Positions 20,115-51,026 are shown, numbered from the stretch's first letter. The stretch is DNA of 52,203 nt from Curvularia clavata (GCA_023920165.1 CP089275.1:5828001-5880203), one strand, 5' to 3'. The notes: generated from the sequence alone by a model not told the origin. Translations and numbers: made by a program.

Positions 20115-20438
20115 CCCATCTTTGGACAGGGGGTTTCTCGCTACAGTGGTGGGGCATTAGGGTAATGTTGCAAAGCAATAATAGCCATAGATCTGAACCA
20201 CCCAAGACCTACCACGTCGTGCTGTCGTCATTGATCGCCAACATGGCTCAGAACATGCCTCTATTTGTGCAACAGTTGCGCTTTCTCTTCTTCATCTTCT
20301 GTCTATTTCCTCCTCTCTACAATTCATACTACTCTGCGCGTGCAGAAGTCCAGCAGACATCGACTCCAAGTTCACCGACTTGAACCCGCAACACAGCGTT
20401 CAAGAATCCATATATACCATTCCTAAGCATCCGGAACC

Positions 20439-22963: not shown

Positions 22964-23538
22964 TACATAAGCACTAGCTTAGTCAGCTATTAGTAATCAA
23001 CTAGTATATAACTATAGCTTTTCATTTCTAGCAACTTAAAACTGTATTCCCCACACAATGGAGCCACAACTGTCGAATTTCGAACGCCAAATCAAAGCGT
23101 TTTTAGACGCTAATACACCTATAAAAAATATAATAAATTACTTTCAAAAAAATCCACGGTCTATATATAACGCTATAGCTCGAATAAAACGAAAATATAA
23201 AGCTATTAGTGAGCCAAAAAGAGCTAGTTTAGGCGGAATTTCTAAGACAACTTCTAGAGCAATAAGAGCTCTAAATAGAGATATACTACGCAGTCTAAAA
23301 AAACCAAAAAATAGATTATTAAACGAAAATAATCTAGAAATATCTAGTAGAACTCTTCAAAGAGTTTTAAAAGCAGAGGGCTGGACTATAACAACTAGTC
23401 AAAAAAAGCCGATTTTAAACGAGAAAAAAGCTAAAAAACGCCTACTCTACGCTAAAAATAAGCTTAAAAAGCTTAGTAATATTAACTTTAAAAAAGTTAT
23501 ATTTTCTGACGAGTCTGGAATCCAGCGTGGATATGGAT

Positions 23539-24045
23539 TGTTACACGGGGTCCTACTGGTTAGTTGGGAATATACTTACCTAGCCTAGATTCCGGGTTAG
23601 GGCGAGGCCAGTTTCTATGAAGTATACCGTGAGGTAGTTGTCTGGCGATTCGGTGGTAGGGATTAACGGAAGATAGACAAAACCAATCCTATTGGAAGAT
23701 AGAATAACTAGTATCAATCTGAGTATGAAAGGTAACTATGAAAGATACTTTGCTGAGTTGACCACAACGAGTGTAATAATGAAATCCAACACATTCTTAT
23801 ACCCATTGCTTCCGGTCCTGTCCTCACTGTCCTCACGGAATAACCCCTGTGTTCTCTGAAGTCCCTGAAGTCACTTTGGTCACGTGTGAGCGTGTCCTCA
23901 CATACTAGCGTGGTTTCCCGGTCTTGGCCTGAGGCCAGTCATGTGATCGCCCTTCCGCGGGGATCATTACCTTCTGACGTGTCGCCCAATGGTCTCCTAC
24001 CTGCGGCCATCGTCAAGGAGAGATCCTTCTTTGTTACTTGTAACA
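23539..24045 (-). repeat. 3' LTR (507 bp)
   Basis: Identical by eye to 30450-30956; adjacent to the polypurine tract. Confidence 0.96.
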
Positions 24046-27000: not shown

Positions 27001-28307
27001 CTGAGCACTTTCTTGACATGTTCGATGTGTTCTTCGAGCGTTCCCTTGGAGTACACTAGTACATCGTCCAAGTAAGCTGTTGCGAAGACACCAAGGTATT
27101 CGTGGAGAGCGTTGTTGATGACTGATTGAAAGGTCGCCGGCGCATTCGTTAGGCCGAACGGCATGACCGTATACTCGAACAGTCCATACTTCGTCTTGAA
27201 CGCTGTTTTCCATTCGTCTCCTTCCTTGATCCTGATCCGATAAAATCCTTCTCGGACATCGAACTTCGTGAACCACTTGGCTCCCTGGAGTCGATCCATG
27301 AGCTCTGTTATGAGTGGTAGTGGGTACCGATTCTTTCGGGTTACCGCGTTCAACCTTCGGTAATCGACACATAGTCGCCATTTTCCGTTAGGTTTCTTTA
27401 CGAACAATATGGGTGAGGCCATCGGGCCTGACCCCGGTCTGATGAATCCTTTCTTAAGATTCTTCCGGAGGTATTCCTTGAGCTCGGCGTCGTGCTCGGG
27501 CGATATAGGATACATGCCTCCTGGCGTCAACTTTGCTCCATCCTCGAGGATGATCTCGTGATCCCAATCCTGATGTTCTGCTAAGTCTGTTGCCTCGTTT
27601 TCTTCGAATAGTTCCTTGAACTCATTCGTTCTGTATTCTTTAGGAATGTCCAACAATACGTCTTTGGGCTTTTCCTGGGGTAAGGGTCTGTCCTTCTTGG
27701 GCACGACTCGTCTTAACCAAATGACTCCTACTTGCTGAGGGTCCTTCGCATAGATTCTCGCGATCTTATGCGGTGAGATCTTGCCGAATCTCCCATCCCG
27801 GGTTGTGCACTGATTCGTCGGGCGTATCTCATGTCGTACTCCAGCAACCCTTTTCGCAGGTTCTCGGCTGAGTATCGTTCTGTTTCGCCAGTCGATGGCG
27901 GGGTTATGGGCATCCAGCCAGTCATAACCGATCAATAGATCCGTTTCTCCTAGATCCATAATGCTAATGCTCATTTGACTCTTGGTATCGGACACCTCCA
28001 GTGTCACCAGTTCTGTCTCGAGCCTTATCGTGCCTTTGCCGTATGCTACGGGCGTTTCTTCGGCCGATATTACCTGTAGCGGACGCTTCTTGCTCCGGTA
28101 TGGTATTTCGTACTTCTCTACCACTCGGGGTGAGATCATTGTTCGTGCGGCACCGCTGTCTACGATTGCCTGTAATTTGTGTCCCTGTACATACACGGTC
28201 GTTACCAATTCCTTTGGGCGATCATCGGTGTAATGTACTCGTCTTAGGGTCGTTTTAGGACTGCCTTTACCAGCGTGACCCTGTCCCTGGTGGCATCCTA
28301 GTTTTTT
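23997..28307 (-). CDS. pol: Pol: protease-RT-RNase H-integrase-chromodomain, entered by -1 frameshift from gag
   Basis: Motifs IVDSGA, LCVDYRRLN, YLDDVL, LETDASD, integrase HHCC and FITDRD..ETDGQTER; chromodomain YTVEEI..YLVRWEGWPDSHNTWEP. The stop lies inside the 3' LTR. Confidence 0.95.
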   Translation of the reverse strand, partial: KKLGCHQGQGHAGKGSPKTTLRRVHYTDDRPKELVTTVYVQGHKLQAIVDSGAARTMISPRVVEKYEIPYRSKKRPLQVISAEETPVAYGKGTIRLETELVTLEVSDTKSQMSISIMDLGETDLLIGYDWLDAHNPAIDWRNRTILSREPAKRVAGVRHEIRPTNQCTTRDGRFGKISPHKIARIYAKDPQQVGVIWLRRVVPKKDRPLPQEKPKDVLLDIPKEYRTNEFKELFEENEATDLAEHQDWDHEIILEDGAKLTPGGMYPISPEHDAELKEYLRKNLKKGFIRPGSGPMASPILFVKKPNGKWRLCVDYRRLNAVTRKNRYPLPLITELMDRLQGAKWFTKFDVREGFYRIRIKEGDEWKTAFKTKYGLFEYTVMPFGLTNAPATFQSVINNALHEYLGVFATAYLDDVLVYSKGTLEEHIEHVKKVLRKLKEYKLYLQPGKCEFHTQETEFLGFIISTEGVKMNPKKVQAVRDWKTPKTVKDVQSFLGLANYYRKFIKDYSKITAPLTEITKKEVGFRWKQEQQKAFDKLKQTFLEAPVLEMYDPQRPTRLETDASDYALGAVLSQQCPDGKWRPVFYHSRKFDEAELNYDVHDKELLGVVDAFEQWEVYLLGLPHTIEVFTDHQNLTSFMTTKKLNRRQVRYAEMLAQFDFKITHRAGSLNGAADALSRRSDLRGKGHKEPHDAVLKRMPDGSLRYNQPDLARLAKIAEQVETLQQQWQQKANEWVPLDGQKELNGLQNKGEPRNESRPYVPTHMRKDLIKELHESREYGHASIDEMVRRLNKAFYMPRLRAQVQEVVGNCVACHQNKPKRHKPYGLLQPLPPPTRPWSSVTMDFIVKLPKSLEPGSARLCDTILVIMCRQTKGAKFVPTEETITAEECAYEVSKALISEHGMPEEFITDRDKLFTSKYWSTFLAKLGVKKKLSTSFHPETDGQTERTNQTLEQYLRFYANKLQDNWVELLPTAQLAYNSSRSATTKYSPHYANYGYEPVAHRDPKDIESIAVGADDKARLMRELHKELSRNIAHRNLTTSKAANKLRIEGPTFKKGDRVFLSRQNLKTKRPSKKLDNLRLGPFEILEKMGPVNYKLRLPPGMRIHNVFHKKLLEPAPPEAELMDDIELEDDEYTVEEIKDLQKIGGQWKYLVRWEGWPDSHNTWEPEGNLTNCRSLVREYHRKHPRKRGTDPRGKGNNQVKKGRKKRQPVTSPSQSTVRVAMVRLSDGPYQGRSSPRPALAHDPEGSRWHDLDQQILALAPQPLGARAEVAQSPSQPEAGAPQHEQSRDAFAASQPRPSPTLPQKQKGYTQRKPKYNQRSDQMLCPRNNEDSSLHNVYTEKSSRGLVPLYGQRGPDAEESNSGYGHDELVEPWAWLGRHGGRSAYDTTGIPRYLSKPPAPSDARENDNPGYRDDNPKRGDNVTSNKEGSLLDDGRR
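24185..24853 (+). CDS. Antisense ORF of the retrotransposon: Zn(II)2Cys6-like cluster plus coiled coil (222 aa)
   Basis: ACCATG start; basic N-terminus; CKRC-x6-C-x8-CAGC-x6-C; then an E/R/K-rich heptad helix and an acidic tail. Confidence 0.7.
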   Translation: MPKVQPTRRVRNQNSTLQRRARADRIREQGREMTFRCKRCEEKNLRCFVDTASGRCAGCISVSAECSLFVSEEEWEKVEAEKRQKRLEIARAEERQLQAAMETARLRRELLEVEAREREFADRDHAILSLQDRAQEQAEGSSAPGTDHPTTEPSLPGLSTDLGWLQADVSYDPFSLDYFLSLEGPSLASVDVSDGTRVPVTCSSSSFLQVPKCCGYLAILPT

Positions 28308-30388
28308 GACGGTCCCCTGGACCCAAGCTTCTTTCCCTTTCTTTTCCGCGGAAAGTAGCCATGGTTCTGTTTTGCGTCCAGGTGGATTCTGCAGTTGTCG
28401 TCTGTGCAGAAGGTCCAGTGTTCGTTTGGGTGGGGGATCATTTCTTCCAGCGTCTCTGGCAGGTTGATCTCCTTTGTCCCGTGCATCCTGCACTTGATCG
28501 TCCGGCATTCCTTAGCCGCGATCGTGCCGTGCAGATGGTGATCTGCATGTCTTGCCGCGATTCTCTGTTCTCGGTGGAATCGGCATTTCTCTATGCAGTT
28601 GATCCAGCAGAGCTGCTCGTGAGCTCGTTGATGTTCTTCCTTGTGGATGTGGCAATCCAGCATGGGGCAGTCGTTTGCCCATAGATGCTTGTGATTAGGA
28701 TCATGCTCGTCCAACTTGCATTGTTCTTTAGCATCTGAGTGGAACATACAAAACCTCCTTTTGCATTCGTTCCAGGCGATCATTTCGTGATCGTCGTGTT
28801 GCTTCCATGGTGCGTGGATGGTGCAATCCAATACCTTGCATGCTTCACTTCTTAAGTGTGCGTGGCAACATTCTTCTGCGTCGTACTGGGACAGTCTCGA
28901 TTCTTCGGCATGGAACTCGCAGTAGTCTATACTGTCGCATTCGATCCAGTGCAGCTTTCTATGTTCGTCTTCGCGGTCGTTTTCTGGTTCCGGTAGCTCG
29001 TCCTTAAAGTACGGTTGTTCCTGGGCTGCCTGGGCAAGTACTTCCCTGGCCATCGGCCCTGTGACTGCAATTCTTCTTCCTCGAAGTGGGCAGCCATTGC
29101 CGTGGTGTGCTGGGTCTCCGCACATCCAGCATAAGTTTTGTGCGATCCGACGCTGGGCATCTGTGTCCTTCACGATCCAGTCGGATGGCTGTGGTGGTTC
29201 CCATTTCATGTGTTTGTCCGCTCTGACGAGCTCCGGGACAATCACATAATCCGTGTTCTCAGCTAGACGTGCTTCGTCGTAGAGGTCTAGATCGCTGAGG
29301 TCGTCGTCGGAGGGTAGTGTAGATGGCTGTGACTTCAGCATCCTGATCTTTACTACTGCCTGCTTGACTTCGTTCTTCGGGCAGTCTCTGCGGAAGTGTC
29401 CTACTTCGCCGCATCGGAGACATGCTTTGTTGTCATAACGCTTCTGGCGTTCTTCCTTGGAAAGGCCGTCCTGGCCCTTTCCTCGGGGTTTCTTGTCTCT
29501 GGTCTTTTCTTGTACTTTTCCCGTCATGATTGTATCGCCGTCCTTGTCTCGGTTGTTGCGTTGTTTCTTGGTGTTAGCCATGTTGGGTCGAAATTGCCGT
29601 TTCTTTTGTTCGTTTCGTTCCCAGATCCTATTGTCGATTCGCGTGGCCAGCTCAATCAGAGCTTGTAACGTTTCTGGCTTATCATGGTGTACTAGACCGT
29701 CTTTGACAATTTCCTTCAGACCGTCTTCGAATACCGTTCGAAGAGCTGCGTCGTCCCAATCAATTCGCGCTTGTAGCTGCTTAAACTCAGCTGTGTAAGC
29801 CGAAACGGACGTGGTCTGCTTCAGGCGTGTGATCGCTTTCTCTGCTTGGTTCTTGGCGTCGACCTCTCCGAAGACACGTCCCATTTCATCCTTGAAGTTG
29901 TTCCAACTTGCGAATAGGGCCTTGGTTTCTTCCTTGGTCCCTTTGGTCTTTATTGACGATAGGTAGTCCTCCACATATGGTTGGACCCAGTTAGCCGCTT
30001 TTCCTTTCATATGCGTACTGGCCATGAGGATCTTTTCCTGATCACTAGGTACCTCGTTGAATTCGCAGTATAGGTCGATGGTGGTGAGGAACGTTCGTAG
30101 GTCGTTACGGTTTCCGTCATACTTTTCGGGAGTTGCCATCTTAGGTTTCTTGACAACCTTTTCGTTTGGCGTAGCCATCAGCTGACTCATAAGCTGATTA
30201 ACCATATTCTGCATTTCGATCATCTGCTGTGCCTGAGCCTGGTGCTCGCGTCTGAGATTGGCAAGTTCCCACTCAGGAGTCCCTGGGGCATGCTCGTTGC
30301 CCACTCCCTGGGTGCTTCCGGCCATGTTGATGTCCTGTGCGGGAGCCGGTCCCTGGACGTTGACATACTCGTTGGAGTTGCGTGACAT
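28298..30388 (-). CDS. gag: Gag (696 aa) with two CCHC knuckles and a His/Cys repeat array
   Basis: PEKYDG..LRTFL and LKQTTSVSAYTAEF capsid-like motifs; knuckles CLRCGEVGHFRRDC and CWMCGDPAHHGNGC; ends TCA AAA AAC TAG. Confidence 0.93.
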   Translation of the reverse strand: MSRNSNEYVNVQGPAPAQDINMAGSTQGVGNEHAPGTPEWELANLRREHQAQAQQMIEMQNMVNQLMSQLMATPNEKVVKKPKMATPEKYDGNRNDLRTFLTTIDLYCEFNEVPSDQEKILMASTHMKGKAANWVQPYVEDYLSSIKTKGTKEETKALFASWNNFKDEMGRVFGEVDAKNQAEKAITRLKQTTSVSAYTAEFKQLQARIDWDDAALRTVFEDGLKEIVKDGLVHHDKPETLQALIELATRIDNRIWERNEQKKRQFRPNMANTKKQRNNRDKDGDTIMTGKVQEKTRDKKPRGKGQDGLSKEERQKRYDNKACLRCGEVGHFRRDCPKNEVKQAVVKIRMLKSQPSTLPSDDDLSDLDLYDEARLAENTDYVIVPELVRADKHMKWEPPQPSDWIVKDTDAQRRIAQNLCWMCGDPAHHGNGCPLRGRRIAVTGPMAREVLAQAAQEQPYFKDELPEPENDREDEHRKLHWIECDSIDYCEFHAEESRLSQYDAEECCHAHLRSEACKVLDCTIHAPWKQHDDHEMIAWNECKRRFCMFHSDAKEQCKLDEHDPNHKHLWANDCPMLDCHIHKEEHQRAHEQLCWINCIEKCRFHREQRIAARHADHHLHGTIAAKECRTIKCRMHGTKEINLPETLEEMIPHPNEHWTFCTDDNCRIHLDAKQNHGYFPRKRKGKKLGSRGPSKN

Positions 30389-30449
30389 GGTGATATCTCA
30401 ATCGGACGCTTGGTGTTAAACCGCTTACCGAATCCGTGGGTGGTCAAAG

Positions 30450-30956: not shown

Positions 30957-32389
30957 TGGATCTCGAGCCGAATTTTCTCGAAATAGGCCAAAATACCACC
31001 AAAATCCAAAAATATACTCTACTAAAAATACAAGTACGTTTAAAAATATTTCTAATAAGCCAAAATATAGTTATATGTATATATAACTATATATATATAT
31101 TATATTTTATATATCTAGCTGACTAAGCCAATTTTTAGCCCATGATATAACTATCCAAGTTTGGGGAGCTATTTGGATAGGTGGCAGATCCAATCTAGTG
31201 GTTATTAAGACGCCAAATAGCGTAGTAAAACATCGAAATCACCACTATATTAGAAAATGTCTAATACCATATATAAAACCGAATATAAAACGCGGTAAGT
31301 TCTGCTATATATTTTTACTTATATATATATATATATATCTAAATATATAAATATATATATATATAAGTCTAACTATACAGTTATAGTTAGCTAATCTATA
31401 TCTATTTAGGCTGGAAATTCCAACAAGATAACGCAACAATCCACAAAGCTAGAAACGTTTTAGACTGGTTTAAGCGCCATAAGATTACACTTTTCGACCA
31501 TCCAGCGTATAGCCCAGATCTAAATCCAATAGAAAACGTATGGAGCTTGCTTAAAAATCGGCTTACTAAGCTGCCAAGCTCTAGTCTTGGCATTGGCGCT
31601 AGTGAGACTAGTATAAATACGTTTATTACAGCTATTCACCAAGAGTGGCATAAAATACCACAAAAAGACATAGATAGCTGTATTTTATCTATGCCCAAAC
31701 GCTATAATAGAGTAGTGGAAGCTAAGGGCTGGTATACAAAATATCAGATAGTAATTTACTATTATTATCTTGTATATTTACTAAAATATAAGTTATATAT
31801 ATATCTTCTAATTTAGATAAATAACTATAGCTATAAAAAATATATATTATATATGTATACTAATAGTATATATCTATATATAGATAGCTATATAAATTGC
31901 AAGATCTCAGCGCGAAAAATACGTGTAAAGTTGACGTTTTTTTTTCTCACTAGTTTAGCTTTGTTTTATAAGAGCTATTTACTTACTAAACTTTTTTTTA
32001 GATTATAGACTAGAAGAGCTGGTAATTCTCTATACAAATCTTAAGCTTTTATATTTTTAGCTATTTTATTAGCTAAGATATAGCCTAGTGAAAAATGCTA
32101 TTTTTCCTTGTGATCTTTTTTCGTGTCACCCCACTGTATATATCTATAGTGCTCGCAACGTTTAGTTAGAGAAGTCTAAAAATTTCTTAGTAGTATCTGT
32201 ATAAGGAGCGTTCCTCTCTAGCTTATATATAAAGAATAGACTAAGACCCTTTCTTAGAGCTGCGCTACTAAAGGAGTTATATAATATATGCCCCCGCGTT
32301 ATATATGACCTGGTCGACTGGTTGTCGATACTTCTTATCTTGACCACCATGTCTCCTCATTCCAGGTTCGTAACACTTTTATATATATC

Positions 32390-32564
32390 AATACTAGTTA
32401 TTCTATTTTTTTAATAGAATCTGTTTTATCTATCTTTAGTTATTCTCTACTTCTGAATCGCTAGATAACTACTTTATAGTATATTTTATAGATACTAGTC
32501 TCGCCCTAATCTAGAATCTAGGCTAGGTAAGTATATTCCCACTAACCTAGGACCCCGTGTAATA
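32390..32564 (+). mobile_element. RIPed partial LTR of the same gypsy family, opposite orientation
   Basis: ATACTAGTTATTCTAT...TCGCCCTAAT..GGCTAGGTAAGTATATTCCC..GGACCCCGTGTAATA matches the reverse complement of 23539-23715 with C>T and G>A changes. Confidence 0.85.
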
Positions 32565-32705
32565 ATTAAAGTAGCGTATACGTAGAAGTTACAAACAATA
32601 GTATTAGTATAAATAGTAGAAGTATATTAAATTAAGTCTATATATTGGTGCAAATCATAAGTAATAACTTTGTTGTTTGTAGTCAAAGTACTCTGATAGC
32701 ATTAG

Positions 32706-32850
32706 TGTTAGACTAAGAGCTAGATTAAAGTACAGTACAAAATACATCAGGTGTATTAGAGCAAACAGTCATATTGTTACGAGAAGAATCACGTAGGCAA
32801 TACGAGTCGAAATCGGCCCAGTATAGACCAGATTAGACTGGGTCCTGACA
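32706..32850. mobile_element. Short diverged solo LTR related to 22755-22963, inverted
   Basis: Begins TGTTAGACT and ends GGTCCTGACA, the reverse complements of the two ends of the 209-bp LTR. TSD imperfect (ATTAG/AGGAG). Confidence 0.6.
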
Positions 32851-33405
32851 AGGAGTATGTTTCACTTAAACTCCTCTTCTATTGTTATACGCCTTTGCTG
32901 TTAAAATATACTACAATCTAAATTACATCACGTTCGATACAACTTACGCATTTATAGATAAGGTTAGTATAATAAGTAAAAAGTAATTCAACGCGGTGAA
33001 GTTACACCTCCCCAGCAGCTGATGCTGCTTGTGTCTAGCCTAGGCTTAGTGATTTTTATAACTACCCCAGCAATCTGCATTGCCTGCTTGAATCAGGTGA
33101 CAGGTTTTCCATAGGCTGTAGACTTAAACCAAACATATCCCTATATATAAGAAGTTCAAAGAAGATCCCTTGCACTTCAATCAAGAATTTTCAAATTCAC
33201 ACAAAAGTTCCAGTCCTTCTTTTGCCCTCAGGATCATTACGCATGTCACAGTAAAGCTTAATGCAATCAGAAGTCGCCACAAAAAAGCCTATGACTTTTA
33301 ATTCGTGTATACATATGGATCGATATGTCTTGTTGCCAAGACTTAACCCTGATCCATCTGAGATCGTAAACTTATCCCGTGTCAAGGTCCTCGAATCCTA
33401 TCCGC

Positions 33406-39138: not shown

Positions 39139-40630
39139 TCACCAATTATTACTAAAAATCTTGCCATCAACATAATTGACCATGTCCCCAACAGGCGCTA
39201 GATGGTCACGGCCGGCGCCAAAAGCCATCCCCCTCCTCATCACATTGCGGTAATTTGCACCTGGTGATACCTTGCCGAGGACATACTCGCGGCGGGTTTC
39301 AACACGCGTGGGGACGGGTATAGAACGACCAATGATGGCCTCCATAGCCTGCCAGGCAAAAGTAATGCTCTCCTTCGCGCCTGCAGGCACACCAGCTGCA
39401 TCCAGCATCATGATCTTGGTATTGGGGTATGCCTGCTGAATGAAGCGGGTGATGTTTGGATTGTAGGCACCGCCACCGCACATGAAGAGCTCTTCGATCT
39501 CCATGTCGGCTGGAGCGTAACGGCGGTAATGGTCTACAATAGCTTGGGCGGTGATGCGCGTGACTGTGGCGACGACATCATCGGGTGACATGCCCAGCTT
39601 CTCAGCCTTCTCAATCAGCTCGAAGGCAAGTGTATCTCGGAAAACCTCGCGGCCGGTCGTCTTGGGTGGGTTGAGGCTAAAGTACCTATGCTGCAGAAAC
39701 TCATCGACCAGGGTCTGGTTAACAGTGCCTCGGGCGCCCATCTCGCCATCTTTGTCGTACTCTAACTCGCCATTTGTGTAGTGTCGCACGACGGCGTCGA
39801 TGAAGACGTTGCCTGGGCCTGTGTCGAAATCGTACGTCTCGGACACGCCACCCTTGTTGTCCGGGGGAATAAAGCAAACGTTCGCGATACCGCCGATATT
39901 TTGGCAGGCTCGGAGTTTAGTGGGATGATGAAGAAGGAGCGCATCGAAGAAGGCGATTAATGGAGCGCCCTGACGGCCAGCTGCTTGGTCTGAGACACGA
40001 AAATCGGTTACAGTGGTAATGCCAGTCCGGGAAGCGATATAGCAGCCCTCCGCCATTGTAAGCGCCGATTTGACCTGGCCGGGCTCGGGCATGGACAACA
40101 GCCAGATAGTCTGACCGTGGGAACCGATGACGTCAATAGACGACTTGTCCACGTTATGCTTCTTGCAAAACTCATCGACAGCGTCGGCAAAAGTTTCACC
40201 AAGAATAACGTTTACCTCAGATAGCCCGGAAGCGGTCGTACGGTCGTGCAGGATGATGTCCATAACGCGCTTCTTGATGGGTTGAGGAAGAGGGGCCTCA
40301 TCATATTTTAGGAGCTCAAAATGCAGAGGCGACTCGGGGGTCTCCTGGCGAAAGCGGCACAAAGTGCAGTCAATGCCATCCTAATGAAGTCAACACTTGT
40401 TCAAACAGTACAGACAAGGGACGACCGAGTGCTGCATAGGCTAAATTCCTATGCAAGAGGACGATTGTGGAGAAAGAAACGATATGCCAAACAACTTTAC
40501 TACTCTTTGGTAAAGTGCATGAAAGGGTTAAGAGCGGAAATGATCATTCCATGGGAGAACTTACCATAGAAGTACCAGAGTTTAAACCTAATACAGTGAA
40601 GTCAAGGGGCTGATGATCTGCAAGAGCCAT
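39139..40630 (-). CDS. lgk: Levoglucosan kinase (AnmK / anhydro-sugar kinase family); exons 40630-40565, 40380-39139
   Basis: [73 protein letters not shown] and MCGGGAYN. These long blocks match my recollection of Lipomyces starkeyi LGK much more closely than bacterial AnmK. Confidence 0.9.
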
Positions 40631-41033
40631 TTTATGGATGCTGTGAATTGAAAAGGTTCGTAAAGGAAAAAAGTAAATGAAAGTAAGAGTAGAAGGGAGA
40701 AAAATGAAGATAGCTGTGAATTGATGAAGATGAAAACTACACCATAGTCCGTCTAGAGCATCTTTATAAGTCAACTGCGCTTAACTCTCTTAGCTAAGAA
40801 GGTATAACGGTAAACATCCACACACGCACGCTCTGCCCTTGAGAGTAGTTCAATGGCTTCCGCCACCCAGAAAATCCAGTTAACCGGGCAAGTGGGGCTG
40901 GATAGGGATGTCAGGGCCATTCTGAGAACTCCGAATTAGGCCATTTGTCGGGAATAATCGATTGAAAATACAACCGAGTGATCTAGAGAAAAGCCTTCCG
41001 TTGTTGAGTGGAGAGGTTCTCTGCTTGGTCAGC

Positions 41034-41060
41034 CGGTTACGCGGTTACGCGGTTACGCGG
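41034..41060 (+). promoter_or_regulatory. CGG-N5 tandem array (CGGTTACG x3 + CGG) in the divergent promoter; candidate Zn2Cys6 site
   Basis: CGG triplets at 41034, 41042, 41050 and 41058; related CGGCTAA at about 41070 and CGGTTAA (minus strand) at about 40880. Confidence 0.4.
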
Positions 41061-41605
41061 CTTGTTAAACGGCTAAGTGGGATGTTAGACTGCAACACGG
41101 CTGTCAAAATGGCAATTCGCATCGAGCCTTGCTAATGGCTTCTAAAAGCGCCCCACCTCGACCATTTCCATTGGTCTATGGTGCCTTTCTGTGCACTCCG
41201 TCCCGGATTTCCTTCCATCCGCACAGCAACGGTCGCTCAAGCTGACGTGCATATTTGCCCTTGTCGGCTTCATCCGAGCACGCGAGTATGGAGTAACCAT
41301 GAAGACACTCCGTGGGGGAGAACCTTGAAGTGAATTATCCCCGGATTGCGGCCTGGTTGTATCTGGTCCTTGCATTTTTTCACACTTGACAGCCCGTGGT
41401 ACTCGCAGTTAGCCATTCCTTTACTGCGGCAGCCTGTGGCAAATCTCCTGTAGGCCTTGGCTCCAGATGCGATATATATGACCGAAGAACCCCAGTTGTA
41501 GGACAAATGCATCTCAGTTTCCATTCTTTGATCCTATTCAGACTCTTGACACCTATTATAAGCATAAGAGCTTTTGAACTCGTTGGCATTCTCTAACTTC
41601 GGACC

Positions 41606-43244
41606 ATGGGTTACACGAACTTATGGAGGAAGCTGTCGGCTTCACAGCTGAACATAGCTATCCAGGTTTTCTCCTTGATCTCCATTTTCTTCGAAGGCTA
41701 TGATCAGGGCGTCATGGGCGGCGTTAACAGCTCGCCGCGGTACGTTCAAGAAGTAGGCATTGGCGGCTCGGATGGAAAAATCACCAACACTTTCCACGAA
41801 GGTGGCATCGTCTCTGTATACTACCTTGGCTGCATTGTCGGCTGCTTTGCTGGCGGCTGGCTGGCTGACCGCATTGGTCGCATCAATGGGTAAGTAACCT
41901 TGTAGAGATATCTTCATTCCATAAATTCTAATCAATAACCTCAGTCTTTGGATCGGCTCCGGCTTTGCTCTGATCGGAGGCGCGCTTCAGGCTGCTACGC
42001 AATCTTCGGACTTCATTCTGATTGCTCGCGTCATCACTGGCCTTGGAACCGGAGCTCTTACCGGCATCACTCCTGTGCTTGTTTCTGAGACTTCATCGGC
42101 TTCCCATCGTGGCGGTTTCCTTGGATACGTCTTCATTGCTAACTACTTGGGCATCTCCGTCGCCTACTGGCTCTCGTTTGGCCTCTCTTTTATCAACAAT
42201 GGCTATTCCGATATCCGCTGGCGGTTTCTTCTCGCTTTCCAATGCATTCCCGCCATTGTGCTACTTCTGGGTGTAAGGATACTCCCTGATTCCCCGCGTT
42301 ACCTTGCATCCGTCGGTCGCTTCGATGATGCACGCGAAGTGCTTACTCACGTCCGCGGAGGCTATACCCCTGAAATTGAGCACGAGTTTCTCGAGATTGT
42401 CACCGTGGCCAAAGATAGCAAACCTAGCTCTCCCCTTCAATTCGCCAAGATTCTCTTCGGTAAAGGCGGCAGGCCTGGCGCTCACCTGGGCCGCCGTGCC
42501 TGGCTCTGCTTGTTCCTCCAGATTATGGCTTCTTGGACTGGTATAACCGCTGTCACCGCATATTCCCCCGTCCTTTTGCGTGCTGCAGGCTACTCCACCC
42601 TTACCCAGAACGGCTTGGCGGGTGGTCTAAACACCGTTGGCATTGTTGGCACAATTATCTCTGCTCATATTGTCGACCGCCTCGGTCGTCGCAGTTGTCT
42701 GATGATAGGCTCTTTTGGTCTCTTTGCCGTCAACCTAATCGCCGCCTCCTTATATGGAGCGTCACGATCCCAGCTTCAGAAAGCCGATAAGTTTGCACCC
42801 GCGGCCGTCGCCATGCTATTCCTTTTCAACCCTATCTACGCATCGACCTGGGGTACCGTCGCGTTCCTGATCCCGACGGAGATCTGGAGCTCTAACCTGC
42901 GTGCGCAGGGTAATGGCTTCGGTATCACGGGCTGGGCCATCGGCGTCGGCATGACCGTCCTCGTCAACCCAATCATGTTCGATAAGCTCGAGAATCGCAC
43001 GTACTTCCTCTTCGCCGGCCTCAATCTGCTCTGGATCCCGATCGTGTACCTTTTCTACCCAGAGACGGCCGGTCGCTCCCTCGAGTCCATCGAGGCCCTC
43101 TTCTCTACGAATAGTCCCTTCAACTGGAATATGGAACAGGCGTACTCGGCCCATGGCGACATTTTGGATAGGAAGAGTCTCAATGGCATCGAAAACTTGC
43201 ATGATGCTGATAAAGACAAGATTGTTAAGACTGAGTCTGTCTAG
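41606..43244 (+). CDS. MFS sugar porter family transporter; exons 41606-41889, 41945-43244
   Basis: Motifs FEGYDQGVMGG, ADRIGR, VSETS...RG, PDSPRYL, VDRLGRR, PTEIW...RA.G and YPETAGRSLESI; multiple hydrophobic helices. Confidence 0.93.
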
Positions 43245-43704
43245 GTGGCCTCTTTAGATATGCTGTAGATACTCTAGTAATCATATACTGTGTTCCTCCA
43301 AACTCATACAAACATGGACATGAAAATGAGGCTAGACGATATAGTAAAGCTCAGTACGCTGGGATACATAGCTGCGTTTTCTAATTACCAGCAGCTGTCT
43401 GCCGGTTATCTCGAACAACCCTACCCTGTGCGCATTGTCGGCAGGTTCGCTTTTCACAAATCCCAAATTTTGTGGTTTTGTTCATTGCCTAGGTTTCATT
43501 ATTTCGCGTGCTGTTGTCTGATGTCCTAGTGTATTCGGAGACGGAGTACCTATGTAATAGCTAAAATAATTCCTCCGCGGTTCTTCGCCCATTCTTAAAA
43601 CTCATATAGTGCCCGCCTGTTGTGATAAAGCAGTAGTAGAGTTATCGTGTTTCAATGAGGCATAAAGTAGTCGAGATCAGTACCGTATGCTGCTATAGCG
43701 AATA

Positions 43705-45559
43705 ACGTGTATGGCAAGCGAGCGGCGCAGGCAAGCGAGCGGCGCACCCCACCAACTTCGCGCACCTTTACAAGCGTGTAGCTCCACCATATAATATTAG
43801 TTTTAATAGATATAAATATAGTAGATTAATTACTATCTATAGTATCTTTCTTACACGTACGTAAGTTATGGCCAGTCTCTCTACACCTACTATAGCGCGC
43901 TAGAGCCTGGCGGCTAACACCTGATCGCTCTCCTCCCTGGCGCTCTTCACAAGCAATCTGCTCATTAGCCTCACGTTAAGCAAGTATATCCTCTCCAGCT
44001 CTCTTTGTAAGGACTCCACGCTTCTATATCCGCTTTTTTTTACGCTGTCTATACTCTAATATTACTGTATTAGCTTTTTCAAGACTAGCAATCCAATCGC
44101 GCATTAACTCAGCCGAGAGCATCATTACCTCTGCCCCCTTCTTAAGCTAGTTAATTGCCGTAATAATTAAAGCTAGCAACGAGTCTTAATACCGCTGAAC
44201 GCGATCACGTATTAATATTAATTAAGCTTCAAGCTCGCGTGCGTTGCTAGGCGTACGAGCCTGCTAGAGGGCTTCTGCTAGAATAGCTGGAGGAGTAGGC
44301 GTACGTAGCTGTACGTCAAGCTTTGATAGAACAGTGTCTGGCTGGAGAGAAATAAGGCCTGCGCCTCGGAAAGCTAAGCAGATATTGGCTGGCGTAAATA
44401 ATTGATCGAAAGCTGTTTTAAACGCTGGCAGAAACTCGAGCTTAGTAATATAGTTAATATAGTTGCGTATCAGACTCTCCACCTCACGGCTATACGCGCG
44501 CTTTAATGGCGAGAAGCAGCTAATGTTAAGAGACTGGAGTAGGTAAGACGAGTGGGGTGGCATATAGAGCGTATAGATATTGTTCTCCTTATAGAGCTCT
44601 TAAAACGCAAGAGAGTTATAACTCTTATGGCCATTAAGGATAAGTAGACGGCGCGCGCCTATAACGCGAGTCTTCGTATGGGCGTTAAAGTGCTTTAGCC
44701 ACTCAACTCCTAGCTCGTTGGTCGTCCAGCCGTTATCGCTAACTGCGATCGCCCAGTCGCGTGGGATCTCTGCCTCCTTATACTAGATAGATAGGTGATA
44801 CTTACTAGTAAAAATTAGAAACGGTAGGATAGACTAGCCAGCTGCGTTAATCCCAGCGATAAACGTCACCCACTCTCGGCTATCTGGCTGGATAGCTTTT
44901 GGCCGGCCTCTTCTCTCTGACGCTGTAACGACAAGCTGAGTCGTGATCTTGCCTATTGAGAAGCCAGCTTCGTTAAAGTTATAGACGTCCTCGTTACAGA
45001 TGCCGTACTTGGCCTTTGTCTGCTCTACAAGCTCAAACCAGCTCTTGATTAAGACTAAATCTTCACATAAAGCTCTCTGCCTATCGTATGTCCGACTAAA
45101 ACGCGTCGTAAGACTGTCTGTACGCTTAACAAAGTTGGCTGGCCACTTTTGCCCAACCTGTCTAGCGCCGCGCGTAGTCAGCAGCTTATTAGCCATATCG
45201 CGTATAGCGGCGTACGTGGGCGCAAATCTACGTGAGTCAAGATCAAGTATATGACTAACTATTACCTCCTCTTCTAGCTTGGTAAGCTTCTTTAAGTTGG
45301 GCTGGCAATCGCGTCGGGCAAGCTTGCCAGCGCGTCGGCGGCGGAGCGTCGTTTCGGCTACATTGTAGACTGTAGCAGCGCGGCGATTTCCTTGAATCTG
45401 TTTATTTTTAAGAGATTGGATAGCAAGCTGGATATCTGGTTTATTTGAAGCCATTTGATTATAACAGTGTTGAGTAATTAGATGTTTAGTTCAAGGAGGT
45501 GCGCAAGTTTGGTGAGGTGCGCCGCTCGCTTGCCTGCGCCGCTCGCTTGCCATACACGT
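43705..45559 (-). mobile_element. pogo/Fot1-type DNA transposon, RIP-inactivated (1855 bp)
   Basis: TA TSDs (43703-04, 45560-61). The 44-bp TIR ACGTGTATGGCAAGCGAGCGGCGCAGGCAAGCGAGCGGCGCACC contains a 17-bp direct repeat. Transposase fragments (YNFNEAGF, MPPHSSYLLQSLN, a C-terminal knuckle) carry many TAG/TAA stops. Confidence 0.93.
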
Positions 45560-45880
45560 TAAGGAACTTGAACCTTTTACGTAACTAGTGACGCGCCTCA
45601 TGTTAAGAAGTCTGAAGCTAACACCGGAGAACCCTGCGCAAAGGTCCCCACCCCCGGCAATTACCAGTAACCATATCGCTTGCTTCTGACAACGCCAAGC
45701 CAGGGACTTGTTGCATACGGCATCGTTTGGTCATGGGATTTAGCTTCAATCAACATGCGCTCTTCCATTTCGCCTCATATTCGTCAACAACCAACTGGGT
45801 CTAATCGATACATTTGCCACTTGATTCTATTCATTTATCCAAGACCCCTAAGCTGAAGTCGAAAAAGTTTGCTTCCCAAG

Positions 45881-48342
45881 CTGGCGGATAAGCAGCGGCC
45901 AAAGAAGCTCTTACGAGCGAGCAGAGCTTGTACGTGTTAAAAACGCCTACCTACCCTGCGCAATTTCCTAGCTTCAACCAAAGTTGTGTTGCATGCTACC
46001 ATCTTTGCGATGCGTATGGATTGTTAGAGAACGATCGTGCTAGTATCGCGTGGAGCTATTTTTTCTTCTACTTTCATGATTTTGCAGCCCGTCTGCCTTT
46101 ATTATCGGACCTCTGCTGACACGACAATCTCCAAGGTGACTTCTGCCACAAACGTAGCATCAAATGCCACCCCAGTGCCACGGACCCCCACAGGTGCCAG
46201 AACTGTTATGATTTCGACGTGCTATGCACGTACGAGCGCCCACTGAAGCGGGGTCATGCTGCGTCTGGCAACGTTTCTTCAGGAAGACTTGGGTCATTCG
46301 CAGCCGCTAGCGATGGAGCCCGGGATTCACGGTTTCGGCGGCACCAGCACCAGCACCAAGATCAGAATTATCGTCAACAATTAGGGCCTGGGCGATTGCA
46401 ACATATTGACAAGATCGCAGATGCAGCGCCTCCAATGGGTGAGGGTGCGGAGAAGGCGAGCCCGTCGTCTGAGAGGCCCGGTAAGGGCTCCACAGCGTCG
46501 AGAGTGCAGATGGCAGTGCGGGAGGAGCTGAGAAAGGAGTGGTCCGGAACTGCGTGGACTGCATTTGCCGCTGTGAGCGCGGGAACCATTGAATATCTGG
46601 TTGGTGTGTATTTCCAGGTTGTTTATCCAATGTAAGTGGCCGAGACTATTCATGTTCTTTGCAAAGGGCGCGACTCTCCTTTGTTAGGGCTAGACTGGAA
46701 TTCCTATTGTCCATTTCGCGAATTCGACTGTCAAACTTTTATGTAACCTGTGCTGACTTGCATCCTGAAGATTCCCTCTCTTCCATAAACCTACGTTGCT
46801 CCAGAGGGTACGCGACCAAGAGTACCTACAGAACCGGGGCTGTTTCACCTCGTTGATGGCAGCATGCGCTCTGGCATCAGCTCGAGAAAGAGATGGCGCG
46901 CTATATGTCTCGGTTAGGGATGGGCTGCATTCGGCCACTATCCCATCAGAAACATTCTATACAGCAGCAAAAGATACGCTACCTAAGAATCTGGTAGAAG
47001 CTCGGGAACTAGATTTTATAAGGGCATGTGTTCTGCTGTCCATCACTAGCCTCCAGTATGGGGATATTGAGGCCATGCAGCTATACTTGGGTCACTATTT
47101 TACCCTGGTTGGAATTCATAGGTTTCATGACGAAGCGTGTTGGCCCAAGAACATAACAAATATCGAGGTTGAGGAGAGGCGGCGCTTGGTGTGTGTCCGA
47201 CGCTACATGCTACCCATTGACACATACGCTAACCATGATAACAGTATTGGTCGACATACACATTCGATATCTATACTTCCATCGTGTGGAATGGTAGCGT
47301 CCACGCCTATGGCGCCAACGCCCGAGTCCATTACCCAACTGAGGTTGAAGATGAGCTTATCACGCCTCTCGCAACGTTATCCTCTCCACAGTCCGCCACC
47401 TCGTGGCTACGTGGGTGGAATTTCACCACGGACCTATATTTGACGCTCGAGCACGCTGCCAACCGGCTGCGCGCGCGCCATGCCCGTCTTGGTGACGGCA
47501 TCGACGTCGCTGCCATCTTTGGCATGCCCGCCTCTTCCTCCGCCGCCGTGCTGGCGTCTATCAACGCGCACTATGCCGCCCTACCAGCAGAGTTCAAGAT
47601 ATTCGCGCCGCCTACAGGTGACCGCGGCCGCGACATCTTTGGATTCCAGGCTGCAAATATTCAGGCGACACTGATGCTGTTGCGCATGCTCTTCCTTTGC
47701 ACCGACGACAACTGCCGCTCACCCTTGGACGTGCAGCTTAAATGCAACGTCGCAGCCGAGGTTGTTGCCGTCTTTCAGACTATTCCAACCGCTTATCTGT
47801 GCGGTATCAGCACACCCCTCATCTACCATCTTGCAGGCATTGGCGTGATTCTTGGGTCCGTCATGGAGGGCCCACTCTCTGAAGAAAGTTATCAGAAGGT
47901 TAAGGGTGTGTTACTTTCCATGGCTGATTTGCTTGAGAGCCTCGAAAGTGGCTTGTCTCGGGCGACTGATATCAGTAAATGTCTCCGTGCACAGGTGGAG
48001 CGGATGGATGAATATATGCGTGCCCAACGTCGGCCTGGAGAAAAGCCTTACGCGCAATTACAGCCAAATGATGGTTCATCCATTCACACTACTGGGACAC
48101 GAATTTCGCAAGCACAACACCTAGCTTCCAACGATGAAGCTGACATGCATATTGTGGGAACTATCAACGACCCAGGCAGCACGTTACCATTGGAGATGGG
48201 AGGTGCAAGTGCAGAGGCAGAAGAAGGACAGTTCAATAACCAGTGGCTTGGTGAGTTCCAGTTCCCACCTGAACTGTTAGAAGACTGGCCGTGGCCGTTT
48301 AGTCTGCAACCTGAAAGCTGGGCTTTCTTAGGACTGGGGTAG
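45881..48342 (+). CDS. Zn(II)2Cys6 transcription factor with fungal-specific TF domain; exons about 45881-45929, 46136-46631, 46771-47188, 47245-48342 (start uncertain)
   Basis: Spliced cluster RASRAC|DFCHKRSIKCHPSATDPHRCQNCYDFDVLCTY; motifs VYPIFPLFH, EERRRLYWSTYTFDIY and WLRGWNFTTDLY. Three introns keep the frame. Confidence 0.88.
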
Positions 48343-48599: not shown

Positions 48600-51026
48600 T
48601 CGACTAGTCTTGCTCGCGCCGTTATATTATATCAAAAATCTCGTTCTAGCTAGTAATAGTCTTTAAAATAATATCGCAGCTTATTTATTAAGACTGCGTC
48701 TAAGCCTAAGTCCCTCTAGAACTACTCTAGATACTTCACACTATTACATCCTACATTCACACACAGGCGGGATCCCTTTAATCTCCCGCCAACTAAAGCT
48801 TTTTAGATTTAGATCTCCTATACTAATTATAGTTAGATTAACTTTAGAGAAGTCGCGTAGATTGCGCTAGAGTAGAGACTTAGAGACTACTAAAAACCTA
48901 TTAGCTATAAAGACAACTATCAATAGCTAACCGAATTCTATCTAGCTTAGGAGAGCTTTCTAGAAAGTTGCCGCACTTCTAAAATTTAAAGTTAAGAGAG
49001 AAGATATCTAGTAAACCGCCAGCTATTAAAAAAGAAGAGAATTTAGAAGAGAATAAGACTAGCCTTCTTTAGGCAGAGATTAATAGACTAAACGAATAAA
49101 TCGCACAGCTATCCTACCAAAATACCGCAGCCCTAGATTAACCTCTCCTCTCTATTAAATTACTATAGCTATAGGACAAAAGTTTTGCCTCGGTAACCTA
49201 GCCACCCCACCAACCACTAACACTACCCACTACTTCGAGCGCCCACCACCAACGCTCCACTACCTCAATGCGATCTAGCAGTACTGTAAAAGATGCCTAG
49301 AGGTCGCAACATGACCGTGGACGAGCGTAATATCGCTGTCGGCATGTTGCAGGCGGGTGCAAGCTATTAAGAAGTCGCGATAGTGTTCCGCCGCGATGCC
49401 TCCACCATCCGACGACTATACAATAAGTATAACACTACCCACACCACTTGCGATAGGCCTCGCTCCGGCCGTCCTACAATACTATCTGATCGTCAGAAGA
49501 AGATTATCTATCGTATTGCACGTCGATCGCCTAAAATACAATATAAACAACTTGTTAAAGAAGCCGTCTTTATACATGCCGACGGCTCGACTTCTAAGCC
49601 CCCTAGCAGCCGTACTTTATGCCAGGTCCTTTCAAGCTTTGGCCTACGCAAATATCGCTGCAAAGGCTGGCCAAAACTGACCCGTCTTCTTGCCTATCAG
49701 CGCTATAAGTTTGCCTGTAGGCACCGGCTTTTCCCTTGGCATCGCCGCACGGTTATCTTCTCAGACGAGTGCTCTGTTCAGAAGGGCTCTGGCGCCCAAC
49801 GAGAGTGGTGTTTTCGCTATCCACACGAGAAATGGAGCAAGGATATGATCAGCGAAATAGATCCAAAATAGGGCCCACAGCAGATGGTGTGGGGGGCTAT
49901 ATGGCTGGATAGAAGAGGCCGCGCTTAGCGGAGTCCTCTCGTGATCATGGAAAGGGATCCCAATACCTAACATAGTGGCTACTCTAGCCAAAGTTACATC
50001 CAAGCCCTTCGTCAAGGCCTACTCCCTTTCTACCGTTCGAATCAGATCTTCATGCATGATAACGCGCGTATACACACGGCCCGAGTCGTCCGGACGTTTC
50101 TCGCGGATCACCAGATTCAGACACTTGACTGGCCAGCCTACTCACCAGATTTGAATCCAATCGAACACCTCTGGTGGACACTTAAAACAAAGATGTGGGA
50201 TATATATCCACAATATAGAAATTATAGCCAAGCCTAAGACGAGTGGCATGGGTTTTGCGAGGCTTTAAAAGACTGCTGGAGTCGGATACCAGACGAGCTG
50301 ATTTCTCGGCTAATTGCGTCCATGCCGCGCCGCCTTTCGGCCTGCCGGCGCGCGCGAGGCTGGCAAACTAAATACTAGTATCTAGGAAATATATCTGCTT
50401 TTGAAATTTGAAAAAAATGCTATTGTTGGTGGAGTTACAGCTGTTTTTTTTATAGGTGATCAACTTCGGTGGGGGTGAGGATTCGGCTAGCGCGGCAAGA
50501 CTTTTGGCGTAGTACTATACCAACTATTACTAAACTAACTAAAACTTAATTTAGAAAGTACTAGTTAGCAACTTTAAACCTACTATATATTAAACTTATA
50601 GAACGTACCTCTTCTATTAATAACTTTAGTAATAGAACAGAACCTATATTCTACTAATAGCAAGCATTAATAGAAGACTGCTTAATAATTAATATAGACT
50701 ATTATTAGAGTAAACGCACACGTATAGCTTTAGTCTAGAGATATACTATAGGTATCGCCAAGGAATATCTAGAACTATAGTACCTAGCCAATTTAGTAGA
50801 GGATTAGTTCTAAAATGCCAAAAATATAATAGCTACTCTAAAATTATACTTCGTATCTAGTAATAAGTAAGTAGAAAGCCGCGCTGCTTTCTACTGCTTA
50901 TTTATAGATAAAAAGAAAATCTTCGCTAAATTTAAAATAACATTTATAAGTACTACTATTAAAGAATCTATATTAAAGTTAGAGTAGTTTTTCTACTTAT
51001 AGGAAAAAATTACCCCTGTCTTACGT
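48600..51026. repeat. Heavily RIPed AT-rich relic interrupted by the Tc1 element at 49166
   Basis: TpA-rich, CpA/TpG-poor sequence on both sides of the insertion; origin not identifiable. Confidence 0.5.
49166..50517 (+). mobile_element. Tc1/mariner (DD34E) transposon, inactivated; transposase 49293-50378
   Basis: Imperfect TIRs sharing CAAAAGTYTTGCC, with TA flanks. Motifs RPRSGRP, VIFSDEC, MVWGAIW, FMHDNARIH, SPDLNPIEHLW and GWQTKY; several in-frame TAA/TAG stops. Confidence 0.88.

Follow-up and report, generated by a model that had tools for sequence, protein, structure and literature searches.

One question raised by the stretch of Curvularia clavata DNA analysed here (GCA_023920165.1 CP089275.1:5828001-5880203; 52,203 nucleotides, the window in what follows) is whether three genes lying between positions 39139 and 48342, which encode a predicted levoglucosan kinase (LGK), a sugar porter of the major facilitator superfamily (MFS) and a Zn2Cys6 transcription factor, are merely neighbours or constitute a unit devoted to a single sugar. 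An initial annotation, made from the sequence alone, had proposed such a unit, and our analysis leads to the same view: with a probability of roughly 0.7, we take the trio to be a conserved and self-contained fungal cluster for the use of levoglucosan (1,6-anhydro-beta-D-glucopyranose), of the enzyme-permease-regulator kind. The link to levoglucosan is drawn from sequence and linkage, and it is from these that we infer the substrate of the porter, the binding of the factor to a repeat array in the promoter shared by kinase and porter, and the inducer to which the factor responds.

The kinase gene is located on the minus strand (39139..40630; 435 aa), where exon 1 (40630-40565), opening with the ATG at 40630, is separated by an intron of 184 nt (40564-40381) from exon 2 (40380-39142), which is followed by the stop codon at 39141-39139. 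The Pfam profile PF03702 (AnmK) spans the protein (E 1.4e-83, profile positions 13-366 of 367), and all 413 residues of exon 2 align with the LGK of Lipomyces starkeyi, an enzyme of solved structure (4yh5; E 1.1e-211, 706 bits), over chain residues 26-438 of 447, with the LGK-specific C-terminal extension included and two single-residue gaps only. Four further L. starkeyi LGK entries align likewise with exon 2, whereas the best bacterial AnmK (3cqy) gives E 5e-49 and 170 bits, so that the comparison with both enzymes, which had been proposed as a check in the initial annotation, comes out on the LGK side. The FDTGPGN stretch holding D212 (4yh5 numbering), a residue that we take to be the catalytic base, is identical between the window kinase and 4yh5 and invariant in 14 fungal sequences. 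Judged by these alignments, the minus-strand gene is a true levoglucosan kinase, grouping with L. starkeyi LGK rather than with bacterial AnmK, and the LGK-type assignment made initially thus holds. Among the best 120 matches, fungal homologues are 76-93% identical to the window kinase, and these matches include Alternaria, Coniosporium, Aspergillus, Penicillium, Mollisia, Rhodotorula and Lyophyllum. A Rhodotorula toruloides 'AnmK' enables S. cerevisiae to grow on levoglucosan, and in yeast extracts its kinase activity clearly exceeds the control, to which the activities of five further fungal homologues came close (PMC9476349); the R. toruloides protein in our comparison that is also named AnmK (P0112) is 76% identical to the window kinase.

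Whether the kinase is accompanied by the same partners elsewhere was addressed by scanning metagenome contigs with an LGK alignment, which yielded 80 loci representing 59 lineages at a threshold of at least 97% LGK nucleotide identity, the porter and regulator of the window serving as queries against these. Lineages were considered informative for the porter when at least 1.5 kb were available upstream of LGK, an orthologue being a divergent gene of at least 50% identity across a gap of under 2 kb, and informative for the regulator when the sequence extended at least 6 kb upstream of LGK and at least 3 kb downstream of it. On this basis, the conservation of synteny across ascomycetes that the initial annotation had put forward as a check is borne out: a divergent porter orthologue (54-90% identical) occurs in 21 of the 32 informative lineages and a regulator orthologue in 15 of 18 (30 of 59 overall), all three genes being seen in 17 lineages, and the same linkage appears in named genomes as consecutive locus tags. 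The position of the regulator relative to the kinase is variable, namely, on the plus strand, upstream in 13 lineages and downstream in seven, and, on the minus strand, downstream in nine and upstream in one, this last being the arrangement of the window. When the comparison is confined to the 30 de-duplicated lineages whose locus measures 6 kb or more, the porter is found in 18 and the regulator in 24, while any other flanking family of open reading frames (ORFs) occurs in at most four, and the search of these 30 loci for a fourth conserved cluster gene returned none common to the lineages. Since the trio is kept while both its surroundings and its internal order change, the pattern argues for selection on linkage rather than for inherited synteny.

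Named genomes give a similar picture. Porter, kinase and regulator carry the consecutive locus tags N7482_007167, _007168 and _007169 in Penicillium canariense, and consecutive tags are likewise found in P. herquei (N7540_003576, _003577), in two assemblies of P. angulare (N7456_009662, _009663), in P. riverlandense (N7474_002702, _002703) and in Elasticomyces elasticus (LTR66_004500, _004501), the tags being two apart in Leptodophora (ACEPPN_013711 and _013713). A gene model of Aspergillus fumigatiaffinis fuses PF03702 with PF04082. Matches fall on equally sized contigs in Aplosporella (all three genes), Saccharata, Neofusicoccum, several Aspergillus, Cadophora, Rhexocercosporidium, Niveomyces and Paraphoma; for the regulator, the search of named genomes used the last exon alone, among proteins of 640 aa or longer. 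In Zymoseptoria tritici, G1889 (AnmK), G1890 (MFS sugar transporter) and G1891 (transcription factor) stand next to each other, uncommented, in a table of genes flanking an unrelated cluster (PMC7317419). By their best matches among named proteins, the trios of the metagenomes derive from relatives of Aureobasidium, Helotiales, Sordariales and Penicillium, to which the kinase-porter pair adds relatives of Alternaria; the regulator matches were left out of this assignment, as the fused gene model P0265 had distorted them. Judged from these closest named proteins, the cluster spans the Dothideomycetes, Eurotiomycetes, Leotiomycetes and Sordariomycetes.

Some of the loci depart from the basic arrangement in ways that may be of separate interest. 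At L018 (11320-21082) genes for a Gfo/Idh/MocA oxidoreductase, for an SDR and for a GMC oxidoreductase, together with one for a sugar porter of 36% identity, come after those of the kinase and regulator, an extended organisation which recurs in L020 and L057 and partly in L048, and in which 8-bp CGNNTA arrays lie between the genes. Because we take Gfo/Idh/MocA to be the family of the bacterial levoglucosan dehydrogenase LgdA, loci of this type may be partly oxidative anhydrosugar clusters. At two further loci (L030:7582-8268 and L040:264-860), a shared ORF family is found upstream of LGK on the opposite strand; its L030 member scores as MFS_1, and the family may represent a non-orthologous transporter replacement.

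How, then, could the genes be regulated in concert? The kinase and the porter diverge from a bidirectional promoter lying between their start codons (40631..41605), the ATG-to-ATG gap being exactly the 975 bp given for it in the initial annotation. Tandem Repeats Finder detects in this promoter (41034..41060), with 100% matches, an array in which the 8-bp unit CGGTTACG is repeated 3.4 times, a candidate operator for the Zn2Cys6 factor, and the pattern CGNNTANNCGNNTA marks a single site in the window, four overlapping matches falling at that one place against 1.44 expected window-wide. The k-mer counts over 23 LGK-porter promoters point to the same class of unit as that of the window array: two to six CGNNTA units at an 8-bp period are found in 17 of the 23, whereas 200 mononucleotide shuffles contain such arrays in 0.5 cases on average and in 4 at most. 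Counted with one locus per lineage, 28 array clusters lie in the 57 kb within 1.5 kb upstream of LGK as against 10 in the other 495 kb, which corresponds to 0.49 and 0.02 per kb respectively and to an approximately 25-fold enrichment, and a cluster is present in 26 of the 40 lineages for which at least 600 bp upstream of LGK are available. Most of the 10 arrays found elsewhere are intergenic and situated beside or between linked genes, notably, in L059 and L060, the 44% identical porter and, in L018 and L057, the additional oxidoreductase and porter genes. One 8-bp unit (41034-41041) fewer is present in the sequencing run X4, so that the copy number of the array varies within the species. Zn2Cys6 factors bind CGG triplets, and it is on account of this preference that the array is taken to be the likely operator of the cluster's own factor, the binding itself being predicted from the sequence of the unit.

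The porter gene (41606..43244, plus strand; 527 aa) comprises exon 1 (41606-41889), an intron of 55 nt (41890-41944) and exon 2 (41945-43244 including the stop, coding to 43241), and matches Sugar_tr (PF00083) in both exons (exon 1, E 6.1e-11, profile 4-76; exon 2, E 7.8e-72, profile 78-452). A sugar porter divergent from the kinase had been part of the initial annotation, and is confirmed. Among the matches listed for named genomes its orthologues are 69-98% identical to it, while the porters of solved structure are distant relatives (best E 2e-32 by HMMER). In the HMMER alignments to STP10 (6h7d), GlcP (4lds) and STP6 (9g11), A290-S291 fall under the Q-Q of transmembrane helix 7 (TM7), T296 corresponds to the Asn of G-x-N, and F402 occupies the column of the Trp of TM10. 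The TM7 signature Q-Q...G-x-N and the TM10 Trp of canonical hexose transporters are accordingly not found in this porter, which reads A-S...G-I-T and Phe, so that its classification among the ordinary hexose carriers would be inappropriate. This pocket is a property of the orthogroup rather than of the window alone, as over 121 sequences (the window and 120 orthologues) A or G occupies the first of the four positions in 120, S the second and T the third in 120 each, and F the fourth in all 121, and as among the metagenome orthologues A-S-T-F is retained in 17 of 20 readable de-duplicated rows, the exceptions being AATF, ASTV and LQKF. The LGK-linked porter paralogues (36-39% identity) retain Q-Q, and two of four the TM10 Trp.

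The composition of this pocket acquires meaning in the context of a hexose facilitator that has been engineered for the same sugar. In Gal2, the substitutions Q341A or W455A increased levoglucosan consumption about tenfold, an effect ascribed to a wider channel for the thicker bicyclic sugar, and the residues listed in that study include Q341, Q342, N346, N347 and F350 (PMC9476349). This list agrees with the spacing Q-Q-x3-N-N-x2-F of the TM7 motif, which makes it very probable that Q341 is the first Q. The column of the TM10 Trp is presumably that of Gal2 W455. The natural pocket thus seems, as far as the aligned columns indicate, to be of the same kind as the engineered one, and the porter is a candidate levoglucosan/H+ symporter.

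Transcription and splicing are observed for all three genes. The contigs of X6 confirm all five modelled introns with GT..AG ends (184 nt in the kinase, 55 nt in the porter and 206, 139 and 56 nt in the regulator), and are evidently RNA because every predicted intron is skipped. They represent the kinase, porter and regulator as separate transcripts, the LGK contig spanning 39100-40967 and the porter mRNA contig 41216-43651, so that about 250 bp between the divergent transcript ends at 40967 and 41216 are left untranscribed. Besides the spliced transcripts of all three genes in X6, pieces of the regulator and porter are found in X23 and pieces of the regulator in X24, both metatranscriptomes whose pieces differ little or not at all from the window, and some of the joints of the regulator introns are seen in these as well. 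Together with the shared promoter array, the presence of all three transcripts in a single RNA run gives indirect support to the predicted joint induction by the substrate. The contig depths (LGK 440, porter 68, regulator 95) do not lend themselves to a ranking of expression and were left unused.

The third member of the trio, the Zn2Cys6 factor, presents a more complex picture. The gene as delimited by RNA contig joints extends over 45655..48342 on the plus strand, its start being approximate, with a transcribed exon 1 of about 45655-45929, exons ending at 45929, 46631, 47188 and 48339, introns at 45930-46135 (206 nt), 46632-46770 (139 nt) and 47189-47244 (56 nt), and the stop codon at 48340-48342. 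The spliced frame is open, yields 686 aa if read from a CTG at 45881, and includes the six-cysteine cluster C-x2-C-x6-C-x9-C-x2-C-x6-C. As the first Cys of this cluster sits in exon 1, exon 2 alone reaches 20.8 bits for Zn_clus, below the cut-off of 21; exon 3 alone gives 16.4 bits for Fungal_trans (PF04082; E 0.0048), under the cut-off of 23. The closest relative, the Paraphoma protein P0241, is an orthologue 60% identical to the window regulator end to end and scores for both Zn_clus and Fungal_trans (48.6 bits), the window being nearest to the Pleosporales.

Comparison with the N-termini of P0241 and P0243 shows that a CTG (45881..45883, plus strand) stands in place of the orthologues' ATG: the closest relatives begin MPVERHKPKK and MPVDRQPPKK, and the window regulator reads L-A-D-K-Q-R-P-K-K. 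Eight codons before the CTG lies an in-frame TGA (45854-45856), which terminates an in-frame upstream ORF of 33 codons opening with the ATG at 45755. The X24 RNA contig over 45853-45929 has 0 differences from the window at the CTG site, and these identical letters, together with the unspliced X6 contig, exclude an assembly error. A spliced start exon further upstream was considered and rejected, the X6 RNA contig being unspliced for about 275 nt upstream of 45929. The CTG has an A at -3 and a G at +4, a context favourable for near-cognate initiation, and either translation starts at this codon or the allele yields little protein. Of the initial description of this gene, the presence of a Zn2Cys6 factor following the porter stands, with a gene ending at 48342 and a Zn_clus match, whereas the loss of the ATG had gone unnoticed.

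Between the 3' end of the porter and the promoter of the regulator sits a degenerate pogo/Tc5 DNA transposon of 1855 bp (43705-45559, minus strand), with DDE_1 and HTH_Tnp_Tc5 fragments, which ends about 95 bp before the first regulator transcript base seen. Its transposase fragments (44264-45490, minus strand) are broken into pieces of 218 and 111 aa; its terminal inverted repeats of 65 nt (43703-43767 and 45497-45561) are 94% complementary, and TA target-site duplications flank it at 43703-43704 and 45560-45561. A 14.5-kb DNA contig of X4 joins 43702 directly to 45560 and so represents the empty site, this contig differing from the window, in a comparison of about 7.4 kb (about 99.8% identity), by a single 8-base gap and at 12 letters. 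Given the inverted repeats, the TA duplication and the empty site, the element is a recent and polymorphic insertion, and its initial description as a later arrival between porter and factor proves correct. With the ATG replaced by CTG and the element lying so close to the transcribed region, the output of the regulator may be reduced or altered in this genome.

The element itself invites two observations. Relative to copies in X4 and X6, the window copy differs, where differences are listed, almost solely by transitions, with mostly A/T here and G/C there, a pattern which looks like decay of the repeat-induced point mutation (RIP) type. In X4 the element is many-copy, with a summed depth of up to about 7400 as against 110 for the flanks.

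Taken together, the three genes would act as follows. The MFS porter, probably a proton symporter, would import and concentrate levoglucosan by means of its pocket of Ala, Ser, Thr and Phe; the kinase would then open the 1,6-anhydro ring and phosphorylate O6 with ATP, giving glucose-6-phosphate in one step; and the Zn2Cys6 factor, by binding to the CGG-containing 8-bp array in the middle of the shared promoter, would switch on both kinase and porter when the sugar is present. A more far-reaching proposal, to which we would give even odds, is that eukaryotes have in this trio their first dedicated system for both the uptake and the sensing of a pyrolysis sugar, consisting of a levoglucosan-specific proton symporter and a levoglucosan-responsive activator that reads the tandem 8-bp CGG(T/C)TA array, distributed over at least four classes of filamentous ascomycetes and repeatedly rearranged yet kept together, with some lineages adding a Gfo/Idh/MocA-SDR-GMC oxidoreductase module which carries the same array and possibly provides an oxidative anhydrosugar route.

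Several observations weigh against the levoglucosan cluster. An orthologous divergent porter is missing in 11 of the 32 informative lineages: two of these have a divergent porter of 37% identity, one has on the same strand an upstream porter of 39%, downstream porters are present at 2 kb in three (44%) and at 8 kb in two (36%), and the loci of the other three (L019, L030 and L040) yielded no sugar-porter match. The regulator orthologue was not found in L017, L022 and L030, three of the 18 informative lineages, and six of the 23 LGK-porter promoters contain no CGNNTA array. The listed matches fall on separate contigs for kinase and factor in P. manginii, for kinase and porter in P. brevicompactum and A. 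glaucus, and for porter and factor in Coniochaeta ligniaria. Neither in the window nor in the RNA contig, which has no further intron, was an intact regulator gene with an ATG start found. For levoglucosan, the Km of LGK lies in the range of tens of millimolar, a very high value, which has led to doubts about the status of this sugar as the native substrate. Some porter orthologues are annotated as 'STL1', the name of a glycerol symporter, and the equivalence of Gal2 Q341 and W455 with the aligned Q and W columns is that suggested by the general motifs.

Such points can be read in more than one way. The cluster might serve another 1,6-anhydro sugar or a wider set, such as mannosan, galactosan, products derived from cellobiosan or anhydro-amino sugars of bacterial cell walls, with levoglucosan as a side substrate of the kinase; the initial annotation had already raised such a caveat, and it continues to apply. 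Bacterial members of the family (PF03702) do act on 1,6-anhydro-N-acetylmuramic acid, the high Km of LGK would be accommodated, the Gfo/Idh/MocA, SDR and GMC oxidoreductases of some lineages hint at a broader chemistry, and the porter pocket, though it differs from that of hexose porters, does not by itself point to a particular sugar. We nonetheless regard a wider substrate range as rather improbable, given that the window kinase matches a solved levoglucosan kinase end to end, that the Rhodotorula homologue lets yeast grow on levoglucosan (PMC9476349), and that among natural 1,6-anhydro sugars none approaches levoglucosan in abundance (PMC4752346). It appears still less plausible, to the extent that we would be surprised to see it confirmed, that the porter carries polyols or hexoses in general, as a protein of the STL1 type, and that the factor controls other genes, the three being neighbours by synteny or by a shared promoter only. 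Annotations of orthologues as 'Sugar transporter STL1', 'hexose carrier protein' and 'plastidic glucose transporter 4' would agree with a general carrier, as would the separate contigs of the listed matches in some named genomes; yet the linkage persists despite varied order and orientation, while other neighbours recur in at most four of 30 loci, which inherited synteny does not predict, the pocket lacks the Q-Q, N and W residues of hexose binding, and the promoter array is both shared and specific.

A third possibility differs from these in that it is compatible with a levoglucosan cluster and concerns this genome only, where the trio would be partly disabled, with the start of the regulator lost and a transposon in its promoter. 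The CTG in place of ATG, the in-frame stop eight codons upstream, the same letters in X24 and the end of the pogo element some 95 bp before the first regulator transcript base would all be expected of a disabled copy. Against this, the frame of the regulator is otherwise uninterrupted across its 686 codons, with an end-to-end identity of 60% to the closest relative, the gene is transcribed and correctly spliced, the context of the CTG is favourable, and LGK and porter transcripts are present in X6, so that we consider partial loss unlikely, albeit a prospect to be kept in mind. For the family as a whole, we retain the conserved levoglucosan-use cluster as the preferred explanation.

The general design of such a cluster is well known, and the novelty of the present one lies in its substrate, in the array of its promoter and in the signature of its pocket. 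Neurospora qa and Aspergillus alc and prn are similar fungal catabolic clusters. Yeast MAL likewise combines an enzyme, an MFS permease and a Zn2Cys6 activator, with divergent enzyme and permease genes and CGG-type promoter sites (PMC6070925). Unlike MAL-type clusters, that of the window would be concerned with a pyrolysis anhydrosugar, has a ring-opening kinase rather than a hydrolase and a tandem 8-bp direct-repeat array as its putative operator, and its regulator varies in place and strand. Bacterial Lgd operons include a sugar transporter. The LgdA/LgdB1/LgdB2/LgdC pathway of bacteria is also a dedicated clustered system for levoglucosan (PMC7676230, PMC10066097). It proceeds, however, by oxidation, elimination, hydration and a reduction to glucose, as opposed to the one-step phosphorylation expected in fungi, and its transporter and regulator classes differ. 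Some fungal LGK clusters (L018 and L057, and L048 in part) add an oxidoreductase of the Gfo/Idh/MocA type, presumably the family of LgdA.

With respect to the individual components, the LGK of L. starkeyi (PDB 4yh5, 4zlu, 5bsb and others) belongs to the same family and by sequence is the same enzyme as the window kinase. It has been published as a kinase alone, the available portion of the source reporting no neighbouring transporter or regulator (PMC9476349), and the window enzyme is known from its sequence. In the engineered Gal2 variants Q341A and W455A a bulky Gln or Trp of the pocket was made small (PMC9476349), and the natural porter has Ala, Ser, Thr and Phe there; Gal2 is an engineered hexose facilitator whereas the window porter belongs to a natural orthogroup, the equivalence of columns between the two being that suggested by the general motifs. 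Zn2Cys6 factors of the Rgt1 type use several closely spaced CGG-containing half-sites in sugar-transporter promoters. The unit of the window, CGG(T/C)TA(A/C)(G/A) at a strict 8-bp period, is unlike Rgt1 sites, and none of the tests run identifies the factor as an Rgt1 orthologue. No description of a fungal levoglucosan transporter, regulator or gene cluster was found in the full-text literature searched, which is mostly non-subscription; the phrase 'levoglucosan transporter' was met there in a single paper, on E. coli, and the view expressed in the initial annotation, that porter and factor are uncharacterised in fungi, is upheld to the extent that no characterising paper was found in the same literature.

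The cluster sits within a transposon-rich region. In addition to the pogo element, the window holds a Ty3/Gypsy-type long terminal repeat (LTR) retrotransposon (23997-30397) with long open frames for pol (1504 aa) and gag (699 aa) and, after it, an AT-rich stretch (31000-33000; 28-33% G+C), as well as Tc1/mariner remnants at 23040-23588 and 49371-50237. Further genes include an open frame with a non-ribosomal peptide synthetase (NRPS) condensation domain that runs off the left end of the window (1-1695), and genes of the ankyrin-repeat (3244-4653), HET-domain (11800-13104) and metallo-beta-lactamase-fold (20427-21494) types. A glycoside hydrolase family 3 (GH3) beta-glucosidase gene (15431-17827), with Glyco_hydro_3 N- and C-terminal domains, encodes an enzyme that could in principle split cellobiosan into glucose and levoglucosan; it was considered as a cluster member and rejected, since it lies 21 kb away beyond the retrotransposon and no GH3-like family recurs at the related loci.

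Levoglucosan is the main sugar of fast-pyrolysis oils. Biomass burning produces roughly 100 million tons of anhydrosugars per year, mainly levoglucosan (PMC4752346), and the use of this sugar by engineered yeast is limited by uptake, the mining of better transporters having been described in 2022 as 'still a challenge' (PMC9476349). The cluster offers in this respect a candidate family of natural levoglucosan transporters with a distinctive pocket, as well as a candidate levoglucosan-responsive factor with its operator, which could be used as an inducible promoter or biosensor, and a genomic marker by which to ask what fungi live on carbon derived from fire. If the more far-reaching proposal is true, the natural pocket evolved the same kind of widening, from Gln to Ala and from Trp to Phe, that engineers later found in Gal2.

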